A DNA stretch of 23,364 nucleotides from Candidatus Falkowbacteria bacterium (GCA_018703365.1 JABJLN010000028.1:1-23364), one strand, 5' to 3'. Shown: positions 2,286 through 4,995, numbered from the stretch's first letter. Notes: generated from the sequence alone by a model not told the origin. Made by a program: numbers and translations.

Positions 2286-2290
2286 ACGTG

Positions 2291-2318
2291 GACTCGACAA
2301 TCTTATTGTCGAGTTTTT
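2291..2318 (+). terminator. Rho-independent terminator.
   Basis: ctcgacaat-ctt-attgtcgag is a 9-bp perfect stem, followed by ttttt directly after the stop at 2285. Confidence 0.6.
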
Positions 2319-2332
2319 AAATTCAGAAAACA

Positions 2333-2361
2333 TTGACAAATAACTAGAAATAAGGGAAAAT
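2333..2361 (+). promoter_or_regulatory. Promoter for the 2400 gene (TTGACA, 17 bp, gaaaat). It belongs to a conserved ~55-bp promoter/leader block repeated upstream of the 3064 gene.
   Basis: cattgacaaataactagaaataagggaaaataacctaattgaactttaacaacaa (2330-2384) matches 2992-3046 at about 48/55 positions. Confidence 0.45.
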
Positions 2362-2399
2362 AACCTAATTGAACTTTAACAACAAAACAAGGGGGAAAC

Positions 2400-2948
2400 A
2401 TGCGACATCATACAATATGTTTTTTTACATTAATATTTCTTCTTTGTTTACCCACCTGCAACAAAAGAGATGCAAAAAAGGAAACTAAGGAAAAATATGA
2501 AACTGTAATTTCCTTAATGGAAAAACTACATGAGAAGCATGTCAACATTGACAACACAATAAAAAAGTTCAAAGACAAAAAAACTGAATTCAAAAAAGCC
2601 ATCAAAGGGATTAAATCCAAACGTGGAATTTCGTCTTATGCTGAGGCAGAAAACAACAAGCCTTTAATGATCCATCTAACAGCCTACCAAAAAGTTGAAG
2701 CATATTTAAAAATACTTAAGGAAGAAGATAAAAAAACTGAACAAGCCGCCATTGAATTATATGGTATTCAGATGCAACTTGAGCTTGACATTGAAATGCT
2801 TGAAAGCATAGAAAATGCCGACCTGGAAGAAACACTTAAGCAATTGAATTTAGTGATTGACAAAATCCAGCCTACAGCAGATAACCTGGTATTAAATGAT
2901 GAAAACACACCCAAAACGCCACTAGAAAAACTTTTCAATGAACTTTGA
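2400..2948 (+). CDS. Small secreted lipoprotein-like protein consisting of signal peptide plus coiled coil plus conserved module only. Paralog 2.
   Basis: N-terminus MRHHTICFFTLIFLLCLPTCNKRD has a hydrophobic h-region then Cys followed by N-K, as in the 3064 and 4996 proteins. C-terminus ...YGIQMQLELDIEMLES...LNLVIDKIQPTADNLVLNDENTPKTPLEKLFNEL. SD gggggaaacATG. Confidence 0.7.
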   Translation: MRHHTICFFTLIFLLCLPTCNKRDAKKETKEKYETVISLMEKLHEKHVNIDNTIKKFKDKKTEFKKAIKGIKSKRGISSYAEAENNKPLMIHLTAYQKVEAYLKILKEEDKKTEQAAIELYGIQMQLELDIEMLESIENADLEETLKQLNLVIDKIQPTADNLVLNDENTPKTPLEKLFNEL

Positions 2949-2965
2949 AAACAACTCATCAAAAC

Positions 2966-2995
2966 CAGCACCACACCGTGCTGGTTTTTTCATTG
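2966..2995 (+). terminator. Rho-independent terminator. The same hairpin recurs at 4892-4919.
   Basis: accagcac-cacacc-gtgctggt then tttttt. It abuts the -35 of the next promoter. Confidence 0.65.
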
Positions 2996-3021
2996 ACAAA
3001 TCATAAAAAATAAGGGAAAAT
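2993..3021 (+). promoter_or_regulatory. Promoter for the 3064 gene, a copy of the 2333 promoter block.
   Basis: ttgacaaatcataaaaaataagggaaaat. Leader motif ggactttgacaac. SD gaggagg. Confidence 0.45.
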
Positions 3022-3063
3022 AACCTAATTGGACTTTGACAACAACCCATTGAGGAGGCCTTA

Positions 3064-4884
3064 ATGAAACATTACTTGAATACAATAGTTCTCCTACTTG
3101 TTATTATTTTCTTCTCGGTGACCTGCAGTAAAAATGAACAGCCAAATGAAGTCATAGATTCAAAACCCAACAGCTCCGCTAAACTACTTGCTAAATTCAA
3201 GCACACACAAGCAGTTTATGGAATTGACTGGCATCCTGATGGAAAACTAATTGCATCTAGACACTACCGAGACACAGCTTTCATCTGGAACACTGAAAAC
3301 AAAACTCGACAATTTGTTCATGATGGCAAGCAACTCACCGACATAAAATTCAGTACTGATGGTAGTTACTTAGCCTTTATTGATCACGAAATTTCTAAAT
3401 ATAGCTGTCAGCGCGAATGTCGTTACTCTGACTATGAACGTTGCAATGACTGCAAGAAAAAACACGAGAACGATTACGATGTGAGATTCTTGTCAAAAGT
3501 CTACGACCTTAGACTAAAACATTACTTAAAAGAAATAGCAAGTGGCTCCGCTCAAACAATCTCAGCTGACCTCAAGGTATATGTCACCCACGCTCTCGAT
3601 TCAAAAATAATCTACTTTGATGGGACATACTTCTTTTCCTCCAGCAGTCGTGCAGGGATGGAGACTTTCATAGAGTCTAGTTCGAAAAATCACTTTTTTC
3701 ATGAAGTAAAAAGTTATTCTGTGCGAAAAACAGAAGAAACAAAAGAAGGAAATACACACCTCGGCGCAATGACAATTTTCTTGTCCACAAAAGGAAATCT
3801 GTTAAAGATTTTCAATCAAGCCGACGACGGGAAGGGGCCTCATTGTTCCATAAAACAATGCAGTCATGATTACAAAATTATGGCTGCAGAGTGGCAACCC
3901 GGAACTAAGAAAATAACAGTTTTAAGTTCTGACAACATTCTAAGTCTTTGGGATAGTTGTTTCTCAGGTAAACAGCTTTACACCTACAATCACTCTGGCA
4001 GTGAAGCAGTGACCCTAAAATGGAATGTATCAGGTGATGTTCTGGCAGTTCAATTCATGAACAATATTTTACTGTTCAATGAAAAATTGGAACTCCAAAA
4101 AACACTGGATATTATGAGTAATGATATTGCCTGGAACAAAGATGGCAATATTTTAGCAGTCATTACCAAAAATAAAATTTATTTTTGGGACAACCTGAAT
4201 TCGAATCTAACTTTTCATGAAAGTTCAGAAAAAATTAATGATTTTGCCTGGAATCCGGAATTCAATCAATTCGCCCTGGCGACTGAAGTGAATGACGACG
4301 AAGGCTTTGTAGAAATTTGGGAGATTGACTCTTCTTATAGAATCATCGTCGCCAACAAAAAGAGAACTTCCAATAATACAGAACATCAGCTGACAATCAA
4401 AGAAGAAACAGTAAAAAAATTAACCACTGTTCGCTCTCTCATAAAACAATTACAAAAAAAGGAAGAATCACTATCAGATGATCTTCGATCCTTCCAAACT
4501 GACGTAGACAGATACAAATCAACAATCACTGACTTGAAACTACACAACAATATTGCAAGCTATAAAGAAGCGGTCAAGAATGACCGGATAAACAATTATC
4601 TTGTAGCGATGCAAAAAGCTTTGGCCTACATGGACTTTATTAAACATGAGCTTTTAACTACTAGCAAAAGTTTAGTGGAGTCTGAAGGCACTCAATTACA
4701 ACTGGAGCTTGATGCAAAAATTCTGGACAGCTTAGACGAGAACAAATTGGACCAGATGATTGCTCAATTGGACTTGGTTATCACAAAAATTCAACCAAAC
4801 GCCCAGGAACTCGTGATTAAAGAAAATGACACACAAAAAATACCATTAGAAAAACTATACAATGAGTATTTTGAAGATGAGTAG
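3064..4884 (+). CDS. Lipoprotein-like surface protein with a signal peptide, a WD40-like beta-propeller, a coiled coil and the conserved C-terminal module. Paralog 3.
   Basis: N-terminus MKHYLNTIVLLLVIIFFSVTCSKNEQ. Repeated beta-strand/W-D motifs (GIDWHPDGKLIAS, FIWNTEN, IKFSTDGSYLAF, AEWQPGTKKITVLSSDNILSLWDS, LKWNVSGDVLAV, IAWNKDGNILAV..IYFWD, FAWNPEFNQFALA..VEIWE). Cys knuckle CQRECRYSDYERCNDC. C-terminus LQLELDAKILDS...LDLVITKIQPNAQELVIKENDTQKIPLEKLYNEY. Confidence 0.75.
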   Translation: MKHYLNTIVLLLVIIFFSVTCSKNEQPNEVIDSKPNSSAKLLAKFKHTQAVYGIDWHPDGKLIASRHYRDTAFIWNTENKTRQFVHDGKQLTDIKFSTDGSYLAFIDHEISKYSCQRECRYSDYERCNDCKKKHENDYDVRFLSKVYDLRLKHYLKEIASGSAQTISADLKVYVTHALDSKIIYFDGTYFFSSSSRAGMETFIESSSKNHFFHEVKSYSVRKTEETKEGNTHLGAMTIFLSTKGNLLKIFNQADDGKGPHCSIKQCSHDYKIMAAEWQPGTKKITVLSSDNILSLWDSCFSGKQLYTYNHSGSEAVTLKWNVSGDVLAVQFMNNILLFNEKLELQKTLDIMSNDIAWNKDGNILAVITKNKIYFWDNLNSNLTFHESSEKINDFAWNPEFNQFALATEVNDDEGFVEIWEIDSSYRIIVANKKRTSNNTEHQLTIKEETVKKLTTVRSLIKQLQKKEESLSDDLRSFQTDVDRYKSTITDLKLHNNIASYKEAVKNDRINNYLVAMQKALAYMDFIKHELLTTSKSLVESEGTQLQLELDAKILDSLDENKLDQMIAQLDLVITKIQPNAQELVIKENDTQKIPLEKLYNEYFEDE

Positions 4885-4891
4885 ATAACAC

Positions 4892-4919
4892 AAACCAGCA
4901 CCACACCGTGCTGGTTTTA
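4892..4919 (+). terminator. Rho-independent terminator with the same hairpin sequence as 2966-2995.
   Basis: accagcaccacaccgtgctggtttt, followed by an attgacaat promoter. Confidence 0.65.
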
Positions 4920-4921
4920 TT

Positions 4922-4950
4922 ATTGACAATAACGTAAAATATTAGTAAGA
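4922..4950 (+). promoter_or_regulatory. Promoter for the 4996 gene (TTGACA, 17 bp, TAAGAT).
   Basis: ttgacaataacgtaaaatattagtaagat. Leader motif gaacttttacaac. SD aaggagg. Confidence 0.4.
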
Positions 4951-4995
4951 TACAATGATTATGAACTTTTACAACAAAATGACAAGGAGGCCCAA

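Follow-up and report, generated by a model that had tools for sequence, protein, structure and literature searches.

The 23,364-nt stretch of a Candidatus Falkowbacteria genome analyzed here (GCA_018703365.1, JABJLN010000028.1:1–23364; the window, hereafter) carries an array of five same-strand genes (g1–g5), flanked by a divergent HypA/PGK block and a convergent NiFe hydrogenase operon. The array comprises five predicted tandem transcription units, each with its own putative promoter and terminator, and four of the genes (g1–g4) are paralogs. Each unit follows the same order: a −35 box, a promoter-phased motif, (T/A)TGAACnTTnACAAC, a Shine–Dalgarno (SD) site, the gene, and an intrinsic terminator. 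The intergenic spacers are ~100 nt long and all align in one layout, including those of g1, g4, and the unrelated g5. The flanks of g2 and g3 proved far more alike than the synonymous sites of the two genes. With somewhat more confidence than doubt, we read the array as a row of tandem autonomous units in which selection on the promoter and motif, together with copying between spacers, keeps the spacers more alike than the genes.

The genes g2 (positions 2400–2948) and g3 (3064–4884) share a ~160-aa helical module, and both are followed by a 26-nt hairpin, AAACCAGCACCACACCGTGCTGGTTT, in exact copies (2962–2987 and 4892–4917). This base-for-base repeat had been noticed in an earlier reading of the DNA (the sequence-only reading), which placed the first copy a few bases off (2966–2995) and the second correctly (4892–4919). 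No further copy was found in the window allowing up to three mismatches (shuffles expect 0.00), and an exact search of the GTDB species genomes and IMG/VR gave 0 matches. Hairpin, T-run, and ATTGACAA together form a 38-nt repeat that is 95% identical between the two sites. The hairpin abuts a −35 box, as had been claimed, with TTGACA 2–3 nt past the T-run; this gap is seen in three of the four between-gene spacers and widens to ~14 nt after the terminator of g1. A shared promoter/leader block upstream of both genes (P_A, 2331–2396, before g2; P_A′, 2991–3056, before g3), likewise recognized earlier, has 83% identity across 66 nt. Within it lies a perfect 23-nt core, AATAAGGGAAAATAACCTAATTG, which occurs at these two sites only (0 expected by chance).

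In a codon-aware comparison, nucleotide identity between the g2 and g3 modules is 52%, and amino acid identity is 39%. Third codon positions of the modules are saturated, with an identity of 0.35 overall and 0.49 at codons for the same amino acid. The sequence-only reading had put coding identity at roughly two-thirds by eye; the measured value is lower, and the contrast with the flanks, which it had described, is stronger than it claimed, with intergenic identity exceeding that of synonymous sites. Across g1–g4, the same comparison gave pairwise module identities of 45%–52% in nucleotides, 30%–39% in amino acids, and 0.32–0.36 at third positions. Along the alignment of g2 and g3, identity runs at 30%–70% in the module and 0.77 in the last 45 coding bases, falls just past the stop codon, where there are indels, and reaches 100% exactly within the limits of the hairpin only. 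The spacer between g2 and g3 is chimeric, with a left half that corresponds to the terminator of the g3-to-g4 spacer and a right half that corresponds to the promoter of the g1-to-g2 spacer; the two halves overlap at ATTGACAA and are joined at the −35 box.

We compared the window with related loci, comprising a syntenic contig from a metagenome-assembled genome (MAG; L004), Falkowbacteria MAGs (L005–L007), metagenome contigs (L008–L011), and L020. For locus finding, a 30-sequence alignment was too diverse, and a 9-sequence alignment gave four genome and four metagenome loci. Every related locus recovered has two to seven tandem family genes with spacers of ~100–165 nt. L004 is the orthologous locus of another species, with orthologs of g4 and g5 and the same convergent hydrogenase gene (protein 64% identical). 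Between the window and L004, the promoter/leaders are 73%–77% identical (53/73 for g4 and 56/73 for g5), compared with 52%–68% for coding DNA (third positions 31%–49%). The orthologous terminators behind g4 and g5 differ in their stems, at an identity of just 57%–63%. Because conversion cannot act between genomes, this comparison of sequences indicates that the promoter/leader is kept by purifying selection and that the two terminator sequences are not. The earlier suggestion of strong selection on a shared regulatory element is thereby borne out for the promoter/leader. Whole units of the array are gained or lost between species.

Identical terminators recur within other genomes. In L004, an identical 35-nt terminator stands both after the ortholog of g5, a gene outside the family, and after an extra paralog that has no counterpart in the window. 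L011 has one of 31 nt (31/31) after two neighbors whose modules are 36% identical. The six terminators of L020 share one stem, and two of its spacers (IG4 and IG6) match at 99 of 112 positions (88%) between flanking genes that are 37% identical; the most similar gene pairs of this locus (59% and 54%) have spacers just 64%–72% identical, and the more similar pairs overall have spacers of 57%–72%. The hairpin CTAACA..TGTTAG occurs after all four family genes of L005 and nowhere else across 20 kb. Terminator pairs at least 90% identical made up three of 29 within arrays versus one of 181 between genomes, and in the window (g2/g3), L011, and L020 the likeness of spacers or terminators is unrelated to that of the flanking genes. 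Since the identity includes the loop, differs by genome, and is unrelated to gene similarity, it points to nonreciprocal copying between spacers, which probably keeps the terminators alike. Gene conversion, one of two explanations raised by the sequence-only reading, appears the best available one for the terminators and for some whole spacers, but its suggestion of ongoing exchange found no support in population data (see below). In three genomes, the identical terminator pair brackets exactly one promoter–gene unit, a pattern that insertion or deletion of units at the hairpin would leave as well as gene conversion would.

The motif provides a further line of evidence. All five predicted promoters (g1–g4 from a promoter scan, g5 from a pattern search) have a perfect −35 TTGACA and a 17-nt spacer; the −10 hexamers are good in g1 (TATATT) and g4 (TAAGAT) and weak in g2, g3, and g5. 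The motif starts ~36–39 nt downstream from the start of the −35 box, around the inferred transcription start. Among 16 genes with a match in the window and five relatives, the TTnACAA part of the motif lies 43–47 nt from the −35 start in 15, and the distance from motif to ATG varies from 11 to 28 nt. This fixed −35 distance and variable ATG distance would tie the motif to the promoter or the transcript start and not to the ribosome-binding site. A two-box pattern had five matches versus 0.07 expected. Scored with a position weight matrix (PWM), sites of at least 15 bits all lay ahead of array genes, of genes of the g5 type, or of the gene that comes next after an array, with one exception at 2938–2954. 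There, the final codons and stop of g2 (ATGAACTTTGAAAACAA) score 19.1 bits, as high as true leader sites. The g2 gene ends early relative to g3, after a 2-nt gap, and the match may be a chance product of conserved C-terminal codons or a relic of a joint.

Two other identities for the leader and motif were rejected. Against a structured RNA leader (riboswitch, T-box, or attenuator), Rfam gave 0 matches in the window at the gathering threshold, with a tRNA scan also empty, and none of the leaders folded significantly; those of g2 and g4 reach 0 to −0.7 kcal/mol, no better than shuffles, and that of g3 −6.8 kcal/mol (z −1.4, nonsignificant). The motif is also not the −35 box of a second promoter, or an extracytoplasmic function (ECF)-type −35 (GAAC), given its distance of 11–28 nt from the ATG, the conserved SD in between, and no −10 at 16–18 nt.

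We then asked what the population holds. The genes g1, g2, and g3 were each indexed in 48–69 collection blocks, and at least 23 contigs were read per gene. All of these contigs, from ENA, JGI, and NCBI assemblies, have one gene order. Contig loci were 99.99%–100% identical to the window and variant contigs 99.9%–100%; the four variant contigs differ at three single-nucleotide polymorphism positions, all within g3, and by a 1-nt deletion within g2, with the spacers free of variants. Because the locus was assembled identically in ENA, JGI, and NCBI records, the repeat is not an assembly artifact. The sequence-only reading had pictured the shared flanks as homology arms for shuffling of variable N-terminal domains and had proposed a search for structural variation across population variants. 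No structural variation was seen among the assembled contigs for any of g1–g3, and the assembled consensus sequences gave no sign of ongoing shuffling; the arms measure just 38 and 66 nt, and the variable domain is N-terminal in g3 but C-terminal in g4. Recombinational shuffling is thus unsupported within the population, and it is possible over evolutionary time because unit content differs between species.

The mechanism we propose combines these strands. Each ~100-nt spacer would pack an intrinsic terminator directly against the promoter of the next gene, which would consist of a consensus −35 box (TTGACAA), a 17-nt spacer, and a weak −10, followed by the motif and then the SD site. Purifying selection would hold the promoter and the promoter-phased motif, whose most likely role would be that of an operator or a 5′-end element co-regulating the array. 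Nonreciprocal copying between spacers of the same genome, by short-tract gene conversion or by recombination at the hairpins, is suggested by the within- versus between-genome patterns and would make certain terminators, and sometimes whole spacers, identical whatever the divergence of the flanking genes. Selection and conversion would thus both act, each on a different half of the spacer, an account that we are inclined to accept, if by a small measure.

Constraint and common descent alone might produce some of this, if all promoter–gene–terminator units came from one ancestor and were held by purifying selection with no copying between spacers. Such a history fits the conservation of promoters between orthologs, the terminators of the four L005 family genes, which keep their stem while the loops differ, and the stems common across genomes (CTAACA/TGTTAG in L004, L005, and L007; AACCGGC/GCCGGTT in L006 and L020, where orthologs are 41%–56% identical). 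It also fits the one cross-genome terminator pair that is 93% identical (L005_T1/L007_T1), found after genes 35% identical. The shared L006/L020 stem and the cross-genome pair weigh against the account that we favor, as do the weak −10 hexamers of g2 and g3 (GAAAAT), the motif match within the coding end of g2, by which the motif is not perfectly specific, and the finding of no population-level evidence of spacer exchange in the contigs read. Because some terminators are conserved between genomes, structural constraint and common descent explain part of the terminator likeness; the loop match of L005_T1/L007_T1, one among 181 cross-genome comparisons, may be chance by our own estimate. Yet loops, which under constraint alone should be free to vary, are identical in the pairs of the window (6 nt), L004, and L011, and six matching loop bases, at the third-position identity of ~0.35, would have a probability of ~0.002 per pair. 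The window and L004, which are separated by less divergence than g2 and g3 are, have unlike terminators after g4 and g5; the likeness of L020 spacers is unrelated to that of their genes; and the perfect run of 23 nt between P_A and P_A′ compares with a longest run of 12 nt between orthologous promoters. We consider it unlikely that constraint and descent suffice. The identical terminators might instead be the joints of insertion and excision of promoter–gene cassettes, driven by homology in an integron-like manner without an integrase; the flanks would then serve as the recombination arms suggested by the sequence-only reading. They do bracket one unit in the window (g3), L004 (the extra paralog), and L011 (the last paralog), and the identity ends at the hairpin limits. 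L004 also has, between g5 and the hydrogenase gene, a unit absent from the window, and a 13-nt flank, ATCACAAACACAA, that precedes the distal terminator in L004 directly follows g5 in the window. But gene conversion confined to the sole homologous stretch predicts the same boundaries, the homology amounts to just 27–35 nt, no structural variant turned up in the contigs read, and the window open reading frames (ORFs) scanned contained no domain of a recombinase, integrase, or transposase. We hold this cassette gain and loss to be more doubtful still.

The order T1–P_A–g2–T_B–P_A′–g3–T_B–P_C, with a joint at the shared −35 box, is what would be expected from a recent tandem duplication of a P_A–gene–T_B segment by unequal crossover at ATTGACAA boxes. 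The coding sequences would then have had to diverge very fast, and we regard this as very improbable: g2 and g3 have reached saturation at third positions (0.35) and at synonymous sites (0.49), neutral saturation is incompatible with 95 nt of adjacent noncoding DNA that is ~86% identical, and g3 has a ~420-aa beta-propeller where g2 has none. Nor is there much to be said for a dispersed mobile intergenic repeat (like repetitive extragenic palindromes [REP], bacterial interspersed mosaic elements [BIME], or miniature inverted-repeat transposable elements [MITE]) or an integron attC site that lies between these genes by chance. The repeats are short, palindromic, and downstream from genes, and by eye the hairpins contain AAC...GTT like attC core sites. 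However, just two copies exist in the 31 kb of genome examined, both inside the array; no exact copy exists in the GTDB species genomes or IMG/VR; the 26- to 30-nt hairpin with its T-run is far shorter than attC; a promoter precedes each gene; the window ORFs scanned include neither an integrase nor a RAYT-like gene; and the L005 family hairpin follows family genes only, across 20 kb. A mobile element of either kind seems to us scarcely credible.

The five units, all on the + strand, can be described in order. All five predicted hairpins form a stable stem-loop with a U/T-run after a stop codon, as intrinsic terminators do. The promoter and leader motif of g1 (1437–1489) have a −35 TTGACA at 1437–1442, a −10 TATATT at 1460–1465, and the motif ATGAACGTTAACAAGCA at 1473–1489; the promoter had 11/12 matches in the scan, and the motif scored 18.5 bits by PWM and was also a two-box pattern match. 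Gene g1 (1515–2285) encodes a membrane-anchored paralog of 256 aa, a transmembrane helix followed by the ~160-aa helical module (module E = 4e-51). Its terminator T1 (2290–2318), CTCGACAAtcttaTTGTCGAG plus a T-run, is unlike T2 and T3 in sequence (ΔG −13.7 kcal/mol, z −4.3). P_A (2331–2396) has a −35 TTGACA at 2333–2338, a −10-like GAAAAT at 2356–2361, the perfect core at 2349–2371, the motif TTGAACTTTAACAACAA at 2369–2385 (23.2 bits), and an SD-like GGGGG at ~2391–2395. The g2 product is a lipoprotein-like paralog of 182 aa, with a signal peptide and Cys and then the module alone, and its terminator T2 (2961–2990; ΔG −15.9 kcal/mol, z −6.2) contains the hairpin that is base-identical to that of T3. 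In a population variant of g2 (L019), a 1-nt deletion at 2830 truncates the protein to 148 aa, and the NCBI annotation of g2 is a shorter, 143-aa product. These observations may point to decay of g2 or, in the case of the deletion, to an error of assembly.

P_A′ (2991–3056) has a −35 TTGACA at 2993–2998, a −10-like GAAAAT at 3016–3021, the core at 3009–3031, the motif TTGGACTTTGACAACAA at 3029–3045 (21.1 bits), and an SD GGAGG. The lipoprotein-like g3 product (606 aa) has an N-terminal WD40-type beta-propeller and the module at residues 446–603, and is followed by T3 (4892–4919; ΔG −15.0 kcal/mol, z −5.6). The g4 promoter/leader (P_C, 4921–4995) has a −35 TTGACA at 4923–4928, a −10 TAAGAT at 4946–4951, the motif ATGAACTTTTACAACAA at 4961–4977 (22.5 bits), and an SD GGAGG. 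Gene g4 (4996–7215) encodes a lipoprotein-like paralog of 739 aa with the module at residues 63–220, a long charged coiled coil, and a C-terminal beta-propeller, so that propeller and module stand in the opposite order from g3. T4 (7220–7248), AAACCCACC..GGTGGGTTT plus a T-run (ΔG −15.7 kcal/mol, z −4.8), adjoins the −35 box of g5. The g5 promoter/leader (7250–7312) has a −35 TTGACA at 7250–7255, the motif TTGATCTTTAACAGAAG at 7290–7306 (16.4 bits), and an SD GGAGG. Gene g5 (7316–8164, start approximate) encodes a membrane protein of 282 aa with multiple transmembrane segments, unrelated to g1–g4 and with the same spacer layout. It is the final unit ahead of the convergent hydrogenase operon, has its ortholog at 3178–4005 of L004, and is followed by T5 (8176–8206; ΔG −14.8 kcal/mol, z −5.1), which lies between g5 and the convergent NiFe hydrogenase gene.

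The module common to g1–g4 belongs to a family seen through an exhaustive hidden Markov model (HMM) profile search, in which 301 representative clusters passed E ≤ 1e-3 and, of these, 117 passed E ≤ 1e-10; when g2, g3, and a 30-sequence profile were used in word-index searches, essentially the query proteins alone came back. Family architectures combine a lipoprotein or transmembrane anchor and the module with coiled-coil, propeller, or Cys-rich tails, and architectures resembling that of g4 were found in relatives. In the array, g2, g3, and g4 have lipoprotein-like signal peptides ending in Cys, and g1 has a transmembrane anchor instead. Pfam gave no consistent match to the module across 30 family members, a PDB sequence search gave no significant match (best E = 0.12), and Foldseek with the helical module model (predicted local distance difference test [pLDDT] 85) found no significant fold, with CdvB2/ESCRT-III the best at E = 0.05. 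Judged by its sequences, the module family is real despite having no Pfam or PDB match. As part of the reading toward which we lean, the array would encode a family of membrane-anchored or lipoprotein-like surface proteins specific to Falkowbacteria or the candidate phyla radiation (CPR). We found no description in the literature of the module family or of terminator conversion in CPR.

Several known systems resemble the array in part. The variable surface lipoprotein clusters of Mycoplasma (vsp of M. bovis, vpma of M. agalactiae, and vlp of M. hyorhinis) are likewise clusters of lipoprotein paralogs in small-genome, host-associated bacteria, with 5′ noncoding sequence much more conserved than the sequence for the mature protein; the conserved block of L020 additionally takes in the signal peptide. 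Expression in these clusters is switched by a site-specific recombinase or through a mutable homopolymer tract, usually with a single copy or a few active, whereas each gene of the array has a complete predicted promoter and terminator. We rejected a phase-variable locus of the Mycoplasma type, having found no recombinase, mutable tract, or structural variants in the contigs read. In their G+C-rich stem, loop, and U-run after the stop codon, and in the TTGACA, 17-nt spacer, and −10-like hexamer, the predicted terminators and promoters resemble the intrinsic terminators and sigma-70-type promoters that lie packed back to back in streamlined genomes; they differ in the weak −10 hexamers and in the family-associated motif at a fixed distance downstream from the −35 box. 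Concerted evolution by gene conversion, for which tuf and rrn spacers are examples, leaves sequence homogeneous within a genome, different between genomes, and in short patches; the window compared with L004 and the genome-specific pairs of L004, L011, and L020 follow this pattern, and the L005_T1/L007_T1 pair and the stem common to L006 and L020 go against it. The homogenized patches of the array differ in being noncoding terminator/promoter spacers beside deeply diverged coding sequence, with conversion here being deduced from the pattern. Another bacterial multigene family in which gene conversion has produced concerted evolution is that of the PE_PGRS pairs of mycobacteria (PMC1762029).

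Integron cassette arrays also present a same-strand row of genes with related hairpin repeats in between and a unit content that varies by species. Their attC sites are 57–141 nt long, however, compared with 26–30 nt for the hairpins of the array, which lack the R′′/L′′/L′/R′ organization, and the genes of the array are not promoterless. Neither the window ORFs scanned nor the 7.6 kb upstream yielded an IntI or other recombinase domain. We rejected an integron/attC array on these grounds: no integrase was found, the hairpins are too short, and every gene has a promoter. The outer-surface lipoproteins of Borrelia (e.g., PFam12 BBH37) are helical-bundle lipoproteins from paralog families as well, and BBH37 is a weak fold match to the module (TM-score 0.5, E = 0.25–0.5, nonsignificant). 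They show no sequence similarity to the module, which here is fused to beta-propellers and long coiled coils.

Some features of the related loci stand apart. The g4 ortholog of L004 (1042–3005) is split into a module ORF (to 1791) and a propeller ORF (1983–3005). The long charged coiled coil is missing, and the split marks either a pseudogene or a true gene fission. L005 has two nonfamily genes (4813–5211 and 13521–13920), each after a family gene and ~81% identical over 300 nt. The pair shares its own promoter/leader (TAACCTGTTCRTTTCCAAACC), a second case of cassette reuse in that genome. A family gene of L020 contains a 9-nt tandem repeat (CCGCCAACT-like, at least six units, 5494–5568) that encodes a Pro-rich linker.

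The neighborhood of the array holds several genes of interest; the hydrogenase operon, the two 23S_rRNA_IVP/bAvd-like genes, the DinB/LexA region, and the gene of the 971-aa protein described here all lie on the − strand. A sulfhydrogenase-like NiFe hydrogenase operon (8225–14000) encodes a large subunit, Oxidored_q6, an FAD/NAD subunit, and Fer4_22, and is interrupted by a PALP gene (a pyridoxal phosphate-dependent enzyme; 9499–10521) and by a 23S_rRNA_IVP gene; HypA lies apart from it at 1127–1381. Two 23S_rRNA_IVP/bAvd-like four-helix-bundle genes are present (11336–11704 and 17397–17795), one of them inside the hydrogenase operon. We rejected a diversity-generating retroelement, finding no reverse transcriptase domain among the window ORFs scanned with Pfam. 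At 14217–17330, a DinB-type translesion polymerase (IMS domains, 14217–15434) lies near LexA (16728–17330), a neighborhood that looks like an SOS module in a CPR genome. A 971-aa protein (18677–21592) has Major Vault Protein shoulder and repeat domains (E = 3e-28 and 4e-9), and its gene has a G+C content of 0.48 versus ~0.35 for the rest of the window; horizontal acquisition is possible. Upstream of this gene (21676–21740, − strand) is an array-like layout of terminator, TTGACA, 17 nt, TAAATT, and ATGAACTTTGA, with a weaker copy of the motif in the same position.

A bolder idea, which we regard as quite improbable, is that the hairpin/−35 junction would be the crossover point of an integrase-free cassette system and the TGAACnTTnACAAC motif the operator of a dedicated regulator that selects which units are expressed. 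If true, Falkowbacteria would insert, delete, and reorder autonomous surface-lipoprotein units through this junction.

Falkowbacteria and other CPR bacteria are uncultured, with tiny genomes and a lifestyle believed to be host-attached; to our knowledge, almost nothing is known of their surface proteins and gene regulation. That the flanks of multigene families are conserved or homogenized is a well-established principle, so the general significance of the locus is modest: It is a new example, in a CPR lineage and an uncharacterized family, of the well-known behavior of surface-protein multigene families. It offers a clean, small case in which selection and spacer-to-spacer copying can be told apart. 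For the biology of the lineage, the locus defines a lineage-specific surface-protein family of ~300 clusters with no Pfam or PDB match, shows a compact terminator–promoter architecture for the independent expression of tandem genes, and supplies a candidate cis-regulatory motif.

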